From Candidatus Hodarchaeota archaeon (GTDB lineage Archaea > Asgardarchaeota > Heimdallarchaeia > Hodarchaeales > Hodarchaeaceae): a stretch of DNA of 33,081 nucleotides. The notes under the pieces are model-generated. The model worked only from the letters and a program-made list of their open reading frames with translations. It was not told where the DNA came from and made no database searches. Shown here piece by piece: positions 1,981 through 9,562 of this stretch (positions are counted from its first letter, which is position 1; each line of letters starts with the position of its first letter). The position numbers and the translations under genes are program-made. The stretch is from positions 1 to 33,081 of the forward strand of contig JAEOTC010000069.1 in the NCBI GenBank assembly GCA_016840035.1. The letters run 5' to 3'.

Positions 1981-2334
1981 ATGAGTGACTTTGAAGATTT
2001 AGATTTTGATCTTGAAGAAACAACAACTGTAAAGGCTAAAACCCCTGCACAGTCAAAAACACCCGTAACTGGGGCAACCTCTGGACCAAAGAAGAATGTT
2101 TTCTTTAAATCTACTGTCGGTCCTGAGAGAACGGAAAAACTCTCTGTTGGTGAAAATACACCTGTACGAGATGTTCGTGACACTTTGGCCAATATTTTTG
2201 GTCTAGATCCTGATGACTTCCACCTTTCTCATGCAGGAAGAACTCTTGACGAAAGTGCACCAATTGGAGATTATGGAATCGAAAATGGTGATGAAATCCT
2301 CTTAATTCCTCATTCAACCGCAGGTTGGAGGTAA
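1981..2334 (+). CDS. Ubiquitin-like modifier 1 (beta-grasp; pro-form ending STAG-WR; acidic N-terminal arm)
   Basis: Ub-like pattern: VRDVRDTLANIFGLDPDDFHLSHAGRTLDE..IGDYGIENGDEILLIP, compared with Ub QRLIFAGKQLED..LSDYNI. Located upstream of E1/E2/JAB/RING genes. Confidence 0.88.
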   Translation: MSDFEDLDFDLEETTTVKAKTPAQSKTPVTGATSGPKKNVFFKSTVGPERTEKLSVGENTPVRDVRDTLANIFGLDPDDFHLSHAGRTLDESAPIGDYGIENGDEILLIPHSTAGWR

Positions 2335-2368: not shown

Positions 2369-2583
2369 AGAAATAAAATGATCCTTTAAATTAAAATTAG
2401 TCTTAAACTCTTCAGTTCCAAGTAAGCAGCATTAATTCGCAGATTCAGATAGATATTTATGGAATGAGAACGATGAAAATGATAGTATTCTCTCTACATG
2501 TTTTCAGAAGTAAATCGGAATCTTCTGCAATAGATGAGTACTCTCCAAAGCTTATCGTGGAGGATACAAGGGAAGCTGTCATT

Positions 2584-2931
2584 ATGTTAGAAAATGAAGA
2601 GTTTATTGAATTTGAAGAAGAGGAGGAGGAACAGAATGATCCCTCAATCCAATCGAAAGTTCCACAATCTAAAACCCCAACTGGTGAACGAATTTCTCTA
2701 TTTTTTAGGTCAACAATTGGACCTGGTGAAAAACAGGAGAAATTAACAGTTGATCCAGAAATGTCTGTGCGTGAATTAGCAGAAACAATAGGTGAAATTT
2801 TTGCTTTAGACCCACAGGATTTTCACTTATCTATTAGTGGTCGAACATTGGACTCGGATGATGTTCTATCTAATTATGATCTCGAAGATGGGCTAGAAGT
2901 CCTAATAATCCCTGTAAGTACCGCAGGATAG
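2584..2931 (+). CDS. Ubiquitin-like modifier 2 (paralogue of Ubl1, ends STAG-stop)
   Basis: Clear paralogue: FFRSTIGP, EKLTV, IFALDPQDFHLSISGRTLD, LIIPVSTAG. ATG 2584 gives 115 aa, close to Ubl1's length. The ORF-track start at 2464 is probably over-extended. Confidence 0.88.
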   Translation: MLENEEFIEFEEEEEEQNDPSIQSKVPQSKTPTGERISLFFRSTIGPGEKQEKLTVDPEMSVRELAETIGEIFALDPQDFHLSISGRTLDSDDVLSNYDLEDGLEVLIIPVSTAG

Positions 2932-2956: not shown

Positions 2957-4195
2957 ATGACAAATTTCACGAGTAAAGCTCTTACAAAAGAAGAAAAACG
3001 ACGATTCGATCGACAATTTCGACTTCCTGGCTGGAATCAGGAAATCCTAAAGCGAAGCTCTGTTCTCATTGCTGGAATTGGAGGATTAGGAGTTGAAATT
3101 GCTAAAAATCTCGCTATGGTCGGTGTAGGGCATTTAATACTCGTGGATTTAGATACTATCGAATATTCTAATCTTAACCGGCAGATACTATTCATTGGAG
3201 CCCCAGAAGGGGCCTCCAAGGCAAAAATGGCTGCAAAGAGACTCAGAGAGATAAACCCATTTATCAAGATTGATGCCTATGATTGTCCTTTACAAGATAT
3301 TCCCCCTCGTATTTACGCCGATGTGGATATGTATATCGCTGGTCTCGACTCTATTGAAGCTAGATCAGAATTGAATCGACGTGCGATCCATAATCAAAAA
3401 TTTCTCATAGATGCAGGGACTGCAGTCTATAATGGGCATACATACGTAATTTCTCCTTTCACCAATGCGTGTTTGGAATGCGATCCTTTAACCGAACGTA
3501 ATCAAGACCAGCTTGGTGCATGTACCTTAGTAGGAAAACCTCGTAGACCCGCTCATTGTATTTTAAAAGGTCAGCTTCAATTCGAGAAAAAAAAGGGCAG
3601 ACCAGTAGATATCCTAAATTCAAAAGAAGTGAATTCTGTGGTTTCATTTGCTAATAATCTCTTGAAGGAATATTTCCCACAACATGAACCGTTCTCTGTG
3701 AATCAGGTGATACAGATAATTGACAATCACGAGCCAACAGTTATCACCATTAATTGTGTGATGGCATCACTTCAATCCCAAGAGGCAGTAAAAATATTAC
3801 ATCACCTACACAGTCCACAGTCTGAAAATCGTTTAGGCAATATCCAATTAAACTATCTAATATATAATGGATTAACGGGAAAATTTTACGAAATAGAAAA
3901 ACCCCGCAATCCGAAATGCGAAATGTGTGGCCAGGAACGAACACCATTATTCCAACTTAAGGTTAAACGTAAGTACCGTTTAACAAAACTAATTCAAAAT
4001 TTTTCTCAAGAGAAGAAGTATCCAATTGACTCCGAATTTCCTCCCATGATGTTTAGGATTGATTCTTCTGAACTCGGTGACATATCTTTAGACCAAACAA
4101 TCTCAGAGGCTGGTATAAGAGATTGTGAAACTGTTCTCGTGACTGGTTTTGATGATGGATCACAAATATATCTCACAATAAATATAGAAGGTTAA
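2957..4195 (+). CDS. Ubiquitin-activating enzyme E1 (ThiF/MoeB adenylation domain, UBA3-like catalytic Cys, probable C-terminal UFD)
   Basis: RFDRQ, GIGGLG, DLDTIEYSNLNRQ, catalytic C189 in CTLVGKPRRPAHCI, Zn-binding CLEC/CEMC, C-terminal ~85-aa Ub-fold-like region. Upstream GAGGA. Confidence 0.93.
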   Translation: MTNFTSKALTKEEKRRFDRQFRLPGWNQEILKRSSVLIAGIGGLGVEIAKNLAMVGVGHLILVDLDTIEYSNLNRQILFIGAPEGASKAKMAAKRLREINPFIKIDAYDCPLQDIPPRIYADVDMYIAGLDSIEARSELNRRAIHNQKFLIDAGTAVYNGHTYVISPFTNACLECDPLTERNQDQLGACTLVGKPRRPAHCILKGQLQFEKKKGRPVDILNSKEVNSVVSFANNLLKEYFPQHEPFSVNQVIQIIDNHEPTVITINCVMASLQSQEAVKILHHLHSPQSENRLGNIQLNYLIYNGLTGKFYEIEKPRNPKCEMCGQERTPLFQLKVKRKYRLTKLIQNFSQEKKYPIDSEFPPMMFRIDSSELGDISLDQTISEAGIRDCETVLVTGFDDGSQIYLTINIEG

Positions 4196-4201
4196 GAAAC
4201 A

Positions 4202-4729
4202 ATGTCAATTCGAATTAAACGCATTGCCGAGGATTATAATCAGCTTAAAACTCTTTACAAGCAGAAAACGATCAAACAGTTGAAAGCTTTTCCAGGCGAG
4301 AAGAAGAGTGTCGAACATATTGCAGTACTCCTTGAAGGACCAAAAGGTACACCATATCAGGGTGGGAAGTTCAAATTGGAAATTAAATTTGGGCCAAACT
4401 ATCCATATTCTCCCCCGTATGTTAGATTACATACAGCTATCTGGCATCCCAACTTTTGGCCGAAACCTGATGAATACAAGGGGAAACGCAATATCTGTCT
4501 TGGATTAGTAGATCCTGACTTAATAGGAAAACCACAGGGATGGTCTCCATCTAAAAACATTACTACGGTAATTTACTCAATTCTAGCAATGTTTAACATA
4601 GACGAAGCTTATACTAATCCCCACGATGTATTCAACAAGAAAGCTGCAATGGAATATCTAAAAGATAAGGGTAAGTTTAAAGAAAAAGCTCGGAAAATTA
4701 CCAAAAAATATGCAAAAAAGAAGTGGTAA
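4202..4729 (+). CDS. Ubiquitin-conjugating enzyme E2
   Basis: GPKGTPYQGGKF, YPYSPP, WHPN (H82-N84), catalytic C99, WSPS. Confidence 0.95.
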   Translation: MSIRIKRIAEDYNQLKTLYKQKTIKQLKAFPGEKKSVEHIAVLLEGPKGTPYQGGKFKLEIKFGPNYPYSPPYVRLHTAIWHPNFWPKPDEYKGKRNICLGLVDPDLIGKPQGWSPSKNITTVIYSILAMFNIDEAYTNPHDVFNKKAAMEYLKDKGKFKEKARKITKKYAKKKW

Positions 4730-4747: not shown

Positions 4748-5584
4748 ATGTCAACAGAAGGTGTTAGCATAATGCCAGAAAAAAAAGATTCTCAATCACG
4801 TAATCTATTTGAGCTTCTTCTTAGGGATACAGCAATGAATTATGATCCTGATAATTCCACTTTAACTTTAAAATTCCCAACCTCTTCTGAAACCAAAGCT
4901 CTTCCCGAAACAAAAGAAACTCTTAACTTAAAGAAGAATATATCACAATCTAAAGAAGCTGTCGAAGATATCGATGACTTAGACCCTGAAATCGATCCTG
5001 TTCGAGTAAAAATACAATTAAAAGCATATATTCGTCTTTGTCTTCATGCATTAAAGTATGCGCATTCATCCATTCCCCAATCTGAGTGGGTAGAAGTAAT
5101 TGGCCTCTTGACAGGTCATATAGAAAACGAAGATACTCCTCTTGCGTGTTTGGTGATAACAGATGCTTTTCCAGTGGGCCATGGAACGAATGTTAATGCT
5201 CAAATTGAGGACCCCCAGAGTATGGTTCGAGTTTTTAATGAAAGTAGAAAGAAAAACGAAATGATACTTGGATGGTACCATTCTCATCCTTCATATGGAG
5301 CATTCATGAGTTCAACTGATTACCAGACACAGGTACGATATCAAAGACTCGGAACAAAAGAGTCTCAATTATCAGCACCAATAGCACTTGTAATAGATCC
5401 AACTCGCATTTCCAGAAGGAGTTATGGATTTAAAATCTTCAGATTGAAAAAAGATTTGAAAAAATGGGAAGAACCTCGTTTTGAAGTTTTAAACTGCTCC
5501 CTAGAAAGTCTTCCGGAATTAATCAGCACCCTGCTACCTTTAGCAGAAGGAAAAACTATGTTCCTGGAATATGATTATGATTGA
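4748..5584 (+). CDS. JAMM/MPN+ metalloprotease (Rpn11/CSN5-like deubiquitinase or Ubl maturase)
   Basis: E116 in EVIGLL; GWYHSHPSYGAFMSSTD matches HxH-x7-S-x2-D; ALVIDPTR; ~85-aa N-terminal extension. Confidence 0.93.
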   Translation: MSTEGVSIMPEKKDSQSRNLFELLLRDTAMNYDPDNSTLTLKFPTSSETKALPETKETLNLKKNISQSKEAVEDIDDLDPEIDPVRVKIQLKAYIRLCLHALKYAHSSIPQSEWVEVIGLLTGHIENEDTPLACLVITDAFPVGHGTNVNAQIEDPQSMVRVFNESRKKNEMILGWYHSHPSYGAFMSSTDYQTQVRYQRLGTKESQLSAPIALVIDPTRISRRSYGFKIFRLKKDLKKWEEPRFEVLNCSLESLPELISTLLPLAEGKTMFLEYDYD

Positions 5585-5607: not shown

Positions 5608-6714
5608 TTGGTTGGAAGAAATGTCTACATCTCTGTGGTTATCACTGGATTGGTCTTTGCCTTCTTAAGCCAAATTGTGAATCCAGAAAGTTTCATGTCA
5701 ATAACTCTTCTTTATTTTACTCTTGTTTTGGTTTTACTTATTAAATTAATAGATGAATGGCGTTATTATCGTTCGTATAATGCACCACTAGCTTCAGCTA
5801 TTTTTATTAGTATTCCGGCGATGATTGCTATCGGGGGTAGTATCATAGCATTGAATGCTACTTTAGGGGATTCTAATGATATTCTCCAGACTTTGTTTTT
5901 AGAAATGAATCTAAATTTAGAATTTCTTCAGTTGGATTCATTCTATCTTTTCTTAAACCTATTTGGAGCCCTCCTATGTACACCATTTTATGTGGTTTTA
6001 GGTATATTATTTCGTCGATACTACTCTGAAAGATACCCAAATATCTTCATATTCAGAAAGAGATTCCCTTCTGAGTCGATTATTGCATTGAATGTCATTA
6101 TTCTTTTAATTTTCTCTCTAATTTGGATGGAACAAAAAGCCATCGAAATTTCCGCCTTTATTTTCGTATTATTTTGTACAATCATCTTTATTCAGAATTA
6201 TATTCTAAAGATTGTGATTGTTCCATTTAGACGGAGTACTAGAACCACTCCGCGAGTAATACGATCACAAAGTAGAACAATCAGGTCTCCACAAGCATCG
6301 AGGGATGCTAGAAGATCTATTTCTGCGTCATCAAATGTAACACCAAGAGAGAACAGATTAAGTAGATCCTCACAACAATCGACTATTCGTGTAGCTCCTC
6401 CAGTGCAGATACCACGTAGAAGGAAAAGGAAACTTACTCCCGCATTAATTGCTAGTCTGACACCTGCGGGTCAGCATTTATCAAAAGATGATTTTCGATG
6501 TATATTCTGTTATGAGTTTCCAACCGATAAACCAGTAGTTATTTGTCCTCATTGCAGGCATCCAAGTCATGCAGATGAGTTTCAAAAATGGCTCGATGTC
6601 GCTAATATTTGCAGTCGGTGTAATAAACCAATTAATAATATAAAAATGATCAGAATTTCAGGTGCTAGTTATCAGAAAATCATTCAAATGTTTCAAAAGA
6701 AGTACAAAAATTAA
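5608..6714 (+). CDS. Multi-pass membrane protein with C-terminal RING-like finger (putative membrane E3 ligase)
   Basis: About 6 hydrophobic segments in aa 1-205, an Arg/Ser-rich linker, then CIFC-x11-CPHCRHPSHADEFQKWL-x5-CSRC (6499-6621). TTG start downstream of GAGGT. Confidence 0.82.
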   Translation: MVGRNVYISVVITGLVFAFLSQIVNPESFMSITLLYFTLVLVLLIKLIDEWRYYRSYNAPLASAIFISIPAMIAIGGSIIALNATLGDSNDILQTLFLEMNLNLEFLQLDSFYLFLNLFGALLCTPFYVVLGILFRRYYSERYPNIFIFRKRFPSESIIALNVIILLIFSLIWMEQKAIEISAFIFVLFCTIIFIQNYILKIVIVPFRRSTRTTPRVIRSQSRTIRSPQASRDARRSISASSNVTPRENRLSRSSQQSTIRVAPPVQIPRRRKRKLTPALIASLTPAGQHLSKDDFRCIFCYEFPTDKPVVICPHCRHPSHADEFQKWLDVANICSRCNKPINNIKMIRISGASYQKIIQMFQKKYKN

Positions 6715-6732
6715 ACAGGTTATGGGATAAAT

Positions 6733-7317
6733 ATGGCTATACGGCATACAATTGCTTGGTTCATCATGCTTATTGGCGTATCAGCTACTATTTTCTTTTT
6801 TATCCAAAATGAGGATAATCTAGCCCTAAATACACTGTTTATTTCGATTTATACCGCTATTACTATTCTTTATTTTCTTCGAATTTTTTATTATGTAGAT
6901 CATCATGCCACACTCAACGAAATTTACTTTCTATCTCTCGCCAATATCATTCCACTTGTAATAATACTAATAAGCCCATTCTTACCTATTTTTGAGGAAG
7001 CTTTATTGGATTTGGCGATTACTATACAGCCTTCTAATGAGCTCGTTGAGCTTCATATTGCAGTACCTTCATTGTTGGCATTTCCATATCTTATAGTCTC
7101 AACTGCTTTATTGATTCGAAGTTTTACTCGTTATCAGTTTATACGAATAACTTCTCAGTCGGAAAGAGGCCCCTCGGCTGAATGGACTGCAATATTTACT
7201 TTTTTCATCTTTGGATTTCTATTTCTCTTTGCAGGTATATTTGCTTCGGATCTCCTTGGAATTTTATACGGGATCTTTTTCATTTTCTCCGGAATCGGAT
7301 TTTTTTTGGGAAAATAA
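6733..7317 (+). CDS. ~6-TM membrane protein, apparent RING-less paralogue of the E3 membrane domain
   Basis: 18 nt after the RING gene on the same strand. Shares colinear motifs with it (see findings). Confidence 0.75.
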   Translation: MAIRHTIAWFIMLIGVSATIFFFIQNEDNLALNTLFISIYTAITILYFLRIFYYVDHHATLNEIYFLSLANIIPLVIILISPFLPIFEEALLDLAITIQPSNELVELHIAVPSLLAFPYLIVSTALLIRSFTRYQFIRITSQSERGPSAEWTAIFTFFIFGFLFLFAGIFASDLLGILYGIFFIFSGIGFFLGK

Positions 7318-8222: not shown

Positions 8223-8879
8223 TTGCCTCGATTAAAGATTCGAACAAAGAAACCATTGGAAACAATGAAGGAAAAGACTCCAACCCACGAGAACACTCCT
8301 TCTATCATCGAAAAAACTCCAGAGGATTCTAAAGAGCATTTTAAACTTCCACCCCAACGAACAAGAGAAGTTAAGAGTATAGAAAAAGAATCTGTCTCCC
8401 ACCCAACCCGTCGCGGTGCAAAGGACAAAAAAATCAAGGAAGAAAGCCGTAAAAACCTACTACCTCCAATGGAACACTCACAAAAGCGAGGTGAATCTTT
8501 AGTTCCGTCAAATAAAGGTAGTCTACCTAAATCAGTTCGTAAGAAAACTCCGGTAAATCGAAAGATTCCAAGACAACACAAATTCCCCTCAACACAAAAG
8601 ACTGTCCCTCCAACCCGAAAGGGAGTTTCGAAGAAGAAAACAAATCGAATTAGAAATAAAGCACCCCCACAGGTAATGAATGCTAAAAATTTGGATAAAA
8701 AGATTCTTCCTCCTCCAAGTATAAATCAAAAACGGAAAAAAGATACGAAACAATTTTTAAACAAAGTCCCTCCAAAATCTATAGTTAACAAGACACCAGA
8801 TAAGAAAAAATCGGTTCCTCCAACTATTATCAAGTCTAAAATTCCCAAAAGCAAGATTAAATTCAAAAAACCAGAGTAA
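8223..8879 (+). CDS. Lys/Pro-rich low-complexity, probably disordered, basic protein
   Basis: 218-aa ORF filling the gap, with GGAG before the TTG start and recurring hydrophobic-Pro-Pro motifs. No recognisable domain. Confidence 0.55.
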   Translation: MPRLKIRTKKPLETMKEKTPTHENTPSIIEKTPEDSKEHFKLPPQRTREVKSIEKESVSHPTRRGAKDKKIKEESRKNLLPPMEHSQKRGESLVPSNKGSLPKSVRKKTPVNRKIPRQHKFPSTQKTVPPTRKGVSKKKTNRIRNKAPPQVMNAKNLDKKILPPPSINQKRKKDTKQFLNKVPPKSIVNKTPDKKKSVPPTIIKSKIPKSKIKFKKPE

Positions 8880-9028
8880 ATCCAATTAAATTTCGATCAG
8901 AGTGATAGTTGGGTGCTAACCTTCAATTGATACAAAGGGAGAGAAAATCATATACCACAAATCAAAAAGATAAAAGAGAAAATAGATTATGTCTAATTAT
9001 TCTAGTTCCTTTTGAAGCGGTGCAGTAT

Positions 9029-9562
9029 ATGAAAAAGAATTACAAGGAAGCTTTAATTACCTTGGTTGGGGGTGCTGGTGTAATTCCTATATTATTAGCG
9101 ATATTTGTGAGTACTATTGAATTCGGCTATTCGATAGTGATTGCCTTTCCATTTTTTCTCATAGCTGGAGTTCTAAATGGGCTAATAACTGAAACTACAG
9201 ACAGTTCTGGATCTTTTATGTTGCATAAATCGCAAAAAGAAGCGATTATTACAATGGTAGGAGGAATAGGTGTGTTTGTTCTCCTGATTGGTATTTTTGC
9301 GTCATCAGTCGAGTTTGGATATGCCCTTGTTATTGCCTATGGATTTTTTCTTATTACTGGAGTTTTGAGTTCGTTAATTGACGAAAAATCAGAACCAAAA
9401 AAGAAGAAACAATTTCATCCACCTTCCTCTCTTGAGGAAGGTTTGATAAAAAGCTCTCCACTTGGTTCCAAAGGTGGAGCAAGCTGTTCTTCGTGTGGAT
9501 CTTCGATGGATAATGATAGCATATTCTGTCCTCAATGTGGAAAGAAATTTCTCCCCTCTTAG
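9029..9562 (+). CDS. Membrane protein with internally duplicated TM hairpin and C-terminal zinc ribbon
   Basis: KEALITLVGGAGV..EFGYSIVIA..FFLIAGVL repeats as KEAIITMVGGIGV..EFGYALVIA..FFLITGVL. C-terminal CSSCG...FCPQCG. ATG 9029 is preferred to the ORF-track start at 8909. Confidence 0.8.
   Translation: MKKNYKEALITLVGGAGVIPILLAIFVSTIEFGYSIVIAFPFFLIAGVLNGLITETTDSSGSFMLHKSQKEAIITMVGGIGVFVLLIGIFASSVEFGYALVIAYGFFLITGVLSSLIDEKSEPKKKKQFHPPSSLEEGLIKSSPLGSKGGASCSSCGSSMDNDSIFCPQCGKKFLPS

Follow-up and report, generated by a model that had tools for sequence, protein, structure and literature searches.

What does a membrane protein without a RING domain do at the end of an archaeal ubiquitylation operon? 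This question is raised by the locus analysed here, a stretch of 33,081 nucleotides (the window) from a genome of the Hodarchaeales (Asgard archaea), whose closest homologues and loci carry Hodarchaeales or Hodarchaeota names and place it in the Heimdallarchaeia. In this window, the genes encoding two ubiquitin-like proteins (Ubl), an E1, an E2, a JAMM protease and two membrane proteins, here called A and B, follow each other in the order Ubl-Ubl-E1-E2-JAMM-A-B, all on the forward strand and separated by short gaps (18 bp between A and B; Table 1). A first-pass annotation of this DNA had described B as an apparent RING-less paralogue of the membrane domain of A and had suggested that both proteins form a two-subunit membrane ligase. 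The two genes are present as described, and we examine below their relationship, distribution and possible roles.

Table 1. Features of the ubiquitylation operon, with coordinates in the window.
Feature	Coordinates	Strand	Details
Ubiquitin-like protein 1	1981..2334	+	Pfam PF00240, E 2.8e-8; C-terminal STAG plus two residues
Ubiquitin-like protein 2	2464..2931	+	Pfam PF00240, E 1.7e-4, below cut-off; C-terminal STAG
E1-like enzyme	2957..4195	+	ThiF, E 7.8e-52
E2 conjugating enzyme	4202..4729	+	UQ_con, E 9.4e-28
JAMM/MPN protease	4748..5584	+	JAB, E 1.9e-16
Gene A: 6-TM domain, Arg/Ser-rich disordered linker and C-terminal RING; probable E3 of the operon	5608..6714	+	
Membrane domain of A (A-TM), residues 1-208, N-in/C-in, paralogue of B	5608..6231	+	
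Outer beta-hairpin of A, TM3-TM4, residues 96-117	5893..5958	+	AlphaFold DSSP, model numbering +9
RING domain of A	6499..6621	+	Ligands C298, C301, C313, C316, H321, E324, C335, C338, plus W328
Gene B: 6-TM protein without RING, paralogue of A-TM, 194 aa, N-in/C-in	6733..7317	+	
Cytoplasmic loop TM2-TM3 of B, residues 49-63	6877..6921	+	Y54, A59, T60, N62 and E63 nearly invariant
Outer beta-hairpin of B, residues 92-109	7006..7059	+	Acidic, variable
Cytoplasmic loop TM4-TM5 of B, residues 128-148	7114..7176	+	Conserved R129, F131, R133, Y134, F136, I137, R138, S143, G146

A Caldiarchaeum-type operon with an unusual E3 candidate

Genes for Ubl, E1, E2, JAMM and RING proteins are found together in this cluster, the arrangement by which operon-encoded ubiquitylation is recognized in archaea, and the operon belongs with the Caldiarchaeum-type systems. 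The operon of Ca. Caldiarchaeum subterraneum encodes Ub, E1, E2, a small RING finger protein and Rpn11 (PMC5654768, PMC6043591), and E1/E2/RING cascades of Asgard archaea have also been described (PMC9192718; bioRxiv 10.1101/2023.07.25.550441). As in the Caldiarchaeum-type system, Ubl, E1, E2, JAMM and a RING protein with a conserved tryptophan are encoded in a single operon. However, whereas the Caldiarchaeum-type E3 is a small RING-H2 protein (C3H2C3), here the RING is carried by a 6-TM domain and has C4-H-E-C2 ligands. The operon further differs by the RING-less paralogue that follows the E3 candidate and by its Ubls, which end with Ala-Gly (STAG) instead of Gly-Gly, as do those at nearly all loci examined (L025-L070), in some cases with a short extension. 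The passages searched in these four sources make no mention of a membrane E3 or of a RING-less twin. A scan of the DNA for sigma-70 promoters and terminators gave matches at chance level, the sigma-70 model being unsuited to archaea. Elsewhere in the window, positions 8223-8879 correspond to a Lys/Pro-rich low-complexity ORF of 218 aa without Pfam match and positions 8909-9562 to a membrane protein of 217 aa that has two repeated hydrophobic segments and ends in a zinc ribbon (Pfam E 6.7e-6).

The E3 candidate A is a 6-TM protein of 368 aa and not a small soluble RING protein. It is read from a TTG start that is backed by the family consensus. In the AlphaFold model, six predicted membrane helices are followed by a disordered basic linker and by a RING/U-box fold, the latter matching RING/U-box chains with Z-scores of 8-9.7 (3lrq: Z 9.7, rmsd 3.9 over 76 residues); Pfam RING matches are present but below cut-off. 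The ligand set comprises seven Cys/His and Glu324 in the sixth position, instead of eight Cys/His. The ligands, Glu324 and the E2-binding tryptophan, W328, are invariant in 100 of 100 homologues. From its fold and genomic context, A is predicted to be the membrane RING E3 of the operon.

Additional RING proteins are encoded elsewhere in this genome: at least five other ORFs, on contigs C185, C112, C159, C85 and C153, match the RING profile (E 4e-8 to 7e-5), one of them encoding a protein of only about 165 aa, and contig C112 carries in addition a second gene for an E2-like protein and one for Cdc48. In another genome (G129, L132:551-961), a separate ORF of 137 aa directly after A is a second and stronger match to the same RING profile.

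B is a distant paralogue of the membrane domain of A

The single sequences of A and B are not significantly similar (pairwise BLASTP, best E 0.45), so that homologue profiles are needed to establish a match that can be noted by eye. With profiles built from close homologues, HHalign matched the membrane domain of A to B at 89% (E 2e-6), and with deeper alignments at 98.9% (E 1.3e-17) over 197 columns. Reversed profiles remained below 0.4% and 60 column- or block-shuffled profiles reached 8.5% at most, and the match persisted at 95% (E 3.4e-8) when every Hodarchaeales sequence was left out. When the A-TM HMM was run on the 527 multi-TM ORFs of the genome, B scored 42.4 bits and the runner-up 6.3. 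In an exhaustive search against 1.84 billion proteins, the same HMM retrieved A-type proteins or fragments and three B-type proteins (E 2.5e-8 to 2.6e-4). The profile test is asymmetric, the HMM of B missing the A protein of its own genome (no match at E<1), and the B profile picks up the upstream A unaided in three genomes (G024, G039 and G052).

The AlphaFold models of A and B, which were obtained separately, share the same order of elements: helices 1-3, a beta-hairpin on the outer side, helix 4, a loop on the cytoplasmic side and helices 5-6. The prediction of about six TM helices with a longer loop between TM3 and TM4 therefore agrees with the models, in which this loop is a beta-hairpin in both proteins; the two hairpins occupy aligned positions in the profile alignment. 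The colinear motifs initially noted are also present and in register in this alignment. Those that hold as features of the family are the YY..A.L loop, the proline of TM4 and the RY..I segment. The pairing of RFPSE with RGPSAE is weak, since members of the A family do not conserve PSE, and the match is mostly due to chance.

One could argue that hydrophobic helices of similar composition have simply converged and that B is unrelated to A, as the non-significant BLASTP comparison and the failure of the B HMM to match A in its own genome would suggest. Such convergence is nevertheless largely refuted, and we find it scarcely credible, because the match is full-length and colinear with null controls, 36 bits separate B from the next membrane protein and the beta-hairpin is common to A and B. 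These data confirm that B is a true but very distant paralogue of the membrane domain of A that lacks the linker and the RING. The proposed ancient duplication of this domain, with loss of the RING, is well supported.

Structure searches with Foldseek, VIA-align and Atlas retrieved no clear relative of either membrane domain (A being searched only as part of the whole chain), the best rows corresponding to designed helical repeats; this does not show that the domain has a new fold. A PDB sequence search, Pfam scans and an Atlas feature search gave nothing usable.

B is retained together with the whole operon in Heimdallarchaeia

B was found in 54 of 400 genomes of the phylum, all from Heimdallarchaeia. 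Among 83 Heimdallarchaeia genomes, 51 encode both A and B, 28 encode neither and four are discordant, namely one genome with A only (G064), which has an assembly gap within A, and three with B only, which are 68-78% complete. The orthologue of the operon E2 is also missing in 28 of the 28 genomes that lack A and B, indicating a loss of the whole system. The presence or absence of A and B follows the operon as a whole, so A is not singled out as the partner of B.

B is located directly behind A, usually at a distance of 10-90 bp, in 44 of the 51 genomes, permuted operons included. It is inverted nearby in two genomes (G052 and G056), interrupted in one and encoded at a separate locus in four (G013, G045, G053 and G054). 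B is thus not a passenger, since it is kept after unlinking from A. No intact Heimdall operon lacks it. In one Heimdall family (L051-L063 and L067), the permuted operon consists of E2-JAMM-A-B, one gene on the opposite strand and Ubl-E1.

Full-length A is common beyond Heimdallarchaeia, for example in most of the 135 genomes of one large family that we take to be Lokiarchaeia, and it always lies behind E2 and JAMM in the non-Heimdall loci examined. These Loki-type genomes encode A without detectable B, so that B is no universal requirement for the function of A. Ten more genomes from outside Heimdallarchaeia, nine of them with A, yielded no second A-TM-like gene. Multi-TM genes of about 219 aa, convergent on A on the opposite strand in several Loki-type loci (L041, L043, L044 and L047-L050), were considered as candidates for B and rejected, as they match neither HMM. 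On a single contig (L134:1427-2071; P0200, ENA ERZ23499107), we observed a complete RING-less protein of 214 aa that shares about 40% identity with the membrane domain of Loki-type A and is not B-like. The genes on either side encode an AAA ATPase and TFIIB, and no remnant of a RING follows downstream; the protein is possibly an independent RING-less derivative.

In a quick unrooted tree, all B proteins form one clade with a long stem (SH-aLRT 100) outside all Heimdall A, and Heimdall A are placed on a long branch away from Loki-type A. The position of this single clade indicates that the duplication took place before Hodarchaeales diverged from the other Heimdall families. The tree fits equally a duplication on the Heimdall stem and an older one with loss of B in Loki-type lineages. 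Long branches of A and B are expected if both copies specialised. The identities of A and B are correlated (r 0.91), which is explained by their shared ancestry, and we give this value no weight.

B has the orientation of A and conserved cytoplasmic loops

The two families share the same loop charges, basic in loops 2 and 4 and acidic in loops 1, 3 and 5. This positive-inside pattern indicates that A and B run parallel, both N-in/C-in, and that the RING faces the same side as loops 2 and 4. An antiparallel, EmrE-like arrangement of A and B was also considered and is ruled out by the loop charges.

B is under strong purifying selection. In the same genomes, its mean identity is 43%, vs 36% for A-TM (B is higher in 77% of pairs), and its median dN/dS is 0.085, vs 0.149 for A-TM (19 non-independent pairs). 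B is inserted in the same orientation as A and is kept under this strong selection only where Ubl, E1, E2, JAMM and A are kept.

These results bear on the idea that B acts as a negative regulator, a pseudo-ligase that would bind A or E2 and dampen activity by displacing an active A-A contact. Many RING ligases require RING dimers, B is a RING-less copy with the fold and topology of A, and A occurs without B in Loki-type genomes, all of which would suit such a role. We nonetheless consider it unlikely: the presence of B in every intact Heimdall operon, usually so close behind A, speaks for fixed co-expression rather than switchable inhibition, and the constraint is stronger on B than on A-TM.

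The conservation of B is highest in its two cytoplasmic loops (0.72) and lowest outside (0.39), the outer hairpin being the most variable part. The best conserved loop, between TM4 and TM5, is the least confident region of the monomer model (pLDDT <60), which would fit a segment that folds upon a partner; this loop is a candidate for a binding surface. Such conservation on the cytoplasmic face could also suit a membrane adaptor working in the same pathway apart from A, through loops that bind a soluble RING protein, the second Ubl or JAMM. B sometimes lies away from A, it co-occurs with the operon as a whole, and the other RING proteins of this genome mentioned above, including the one of about 165 aa, would offer partners. 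This role appears rather improbable, because B is right behind A in most genomes, also in the permuted operons of the order E2-JAMM-A-B...Ubl-E1, and no soluble RING gene was seen beside B.

The membrane core of B contains no conserved charged or amide residue (E150 sits at the cytoplasmic start of TM5), and three are conserved in the membrane domain of A, two of them at helix ends. The absence of conserved polar residues from the core of B argues against both a hydrophilic half-channel and a catalytic site. The half-channel suggested for B in the first-pass annotation has, accordingly, no support from the sequence. In that scenario, A and B would be two half-channels providing a conduit or a thinning of the membrane for Cdc48-driven, ERAD-like extraction. 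There is a precedent in Pex2/10/12, whose paralogous multi-TM subunits form a channel (PMC9279156), and the genome encodes three Cdc48 homologues above the Pfam cut-off. Moreover, TM1-4 of the A and B models align weakly with the last four helices of HRD1 (residues 141-267; Z 7.0, rmsd 3.6 over 106 residues and Z 6.3, rmsd 4.2 over 117 residues for the two models). At an identity of 6-7%, these alignments are not significant and lie within the noise for helical bundles, with Z-scores that are common among such bundles and below those of unrelated designed proteins. The likeness to HRD1 is only a lead, and we give the half-channels a slim chance.

Finally, B could be a dedicated substrate of A whose function is switched by attachment of Ubl. 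B adjoins A and is co-distributed with it, and cytoplasmic-loop lysines are partly conserved in many homologues (position 58 is a lysine in about 58% of them). However, no lysine is invariant in the family, and the only lysine in the B protein of this genome is its very last residue, a lysine content lower than that of 99% of 127 small multi-TM proteins. K/(K+R) in B is 0.19 in Hodarchaeales vs 0.46 in other Heimdall, and A-TM follows a similar trend. A role as substrate would also leave the paralogy of A and B unexplained, and we regard it as highly unlikely.

A putative two-subunit membrane ligase

We favour the reading that A and B together form a membrane E3 to which B contributes as a non-catalytic subunit, and we judge it somewhat likelier to be right than wrong. 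Co-occurrence, gene order, same-side topology and conservation are best explained by the two-subunit ligase put forward at the outset, although all of them bear on it indirectly. The low lysine content of B in this genome also fits this reading, but is not shared by other Heimdall B. The complex prediction for A-TM and B, each with its own alignment, gave ipSAE values of 0.01 and 0.10, below the mark of 0.32, and speaks neither for nor against binding.

In a ligase of this kind, the tethered RING of A would recruit the charged E2 and tag membrane or membrane-adjacent proteins. B would pack beside A in the membrane, taking the place of one copy in an ancestral homo-oligomer of A (assuming that ancestral A was an oligomer), a state that Loki-type genomes with A alone would have kept. 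The conserved cytoplasmic loops of B could be part of a composite surface binding A, E2~Ubl or the substrate, and its helices may assist in the selection of membrane substrates. B may also be a substrate receptor, the other role envisaged for it in the first-pass annotation. In a bolder version, the pair would be a pseudo-symmetric ligase by which membrane proteins are captured, labelled with the Ubl of the operon and passed to Cdc48. This would make it an archaeal counterpart of ERAD or Asi quality control that evolved from a homomer into a heteromer within the class nearest to eukaryotes, possibly with a four-helix core in common with Hrd1; we consider this version unlikely.

In the literature searched, outside which most subscription papers fall, we found no description of the A/B pair. 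Prokaryotic ubiquitylation cascades described so far use small RING proteins. The A/B pair is suggestive of a two-subunit membrane ligase in an Asgard archaeon that stands close to the eukaryotic ancestors. If this is true, multi-subunit membrane ligases, so far a eukaryotic design, are present in Heimdallarchaeia. A membrane E3 also bears on the question of the membrane cargo of Asgard ubiquitin-ESCRT systems. Loki-type A alone and Heimdall A plus B would provide a natural before/after pair for the change from homomer to heteromer, and the presence of the whole set of components in one operon makes reconstitution feasible.

Comparison with eukaryotic membrane ligases

The comparison with the Asi and Pex2/10/12 complexes made in the first-pass annotation holds as an analogy only. 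The yeast Asi1/Asi2/Asi3 complex is a membrane RING ligase in which a RING-less membrane subunit, Asi2, binds TM segments of substrates (PMC6941229). With a RING ligase and a RING-less membrane subunit, Asi is the closest functional analogy to A and B, homology not being claimed. In Asi, it is the RING subunits that are paralogous to each other, and Asi2 is not known to derive from their membrane domain, whereas B derives from that of A.

The nearest evolutionary analogy is provided by Pex2/Pex10/Pex12. These three membrane subunits probably share a common ancestor, and each of them has five hydrophilic TM segments and a cytosolic RING (PMC9279156). A and B resemble them as paralogous, putative membrane subunits associated with a cytosolic RING, but have six apolar helices each, and B has no RING. 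No Pex2_Pex12 domain is among the Pfam matches listed for A and B. Searches of the genome with the DER1, TRC8_N and Pex2_Pex12 profiles, run without positive control, gave no match.

As in Hrd1 and the RING-CH ligases (MARCH/Doa10), a multi-TM domain is combined in A with a cytoplasmic RING, whose ligand order resembles C4HC3. Unlike in the Hrd1-Der1 pair, in which Der1 is a rhomboid-like protein and not a paralogue of Hrd1, B is a paralogue of the membrane domain of its putative partner. RING-CH domains are N-terminal and have a Cys at the ligand position in question, whereas the RING of A is C-terminal and has a Glu in place of this Cys.
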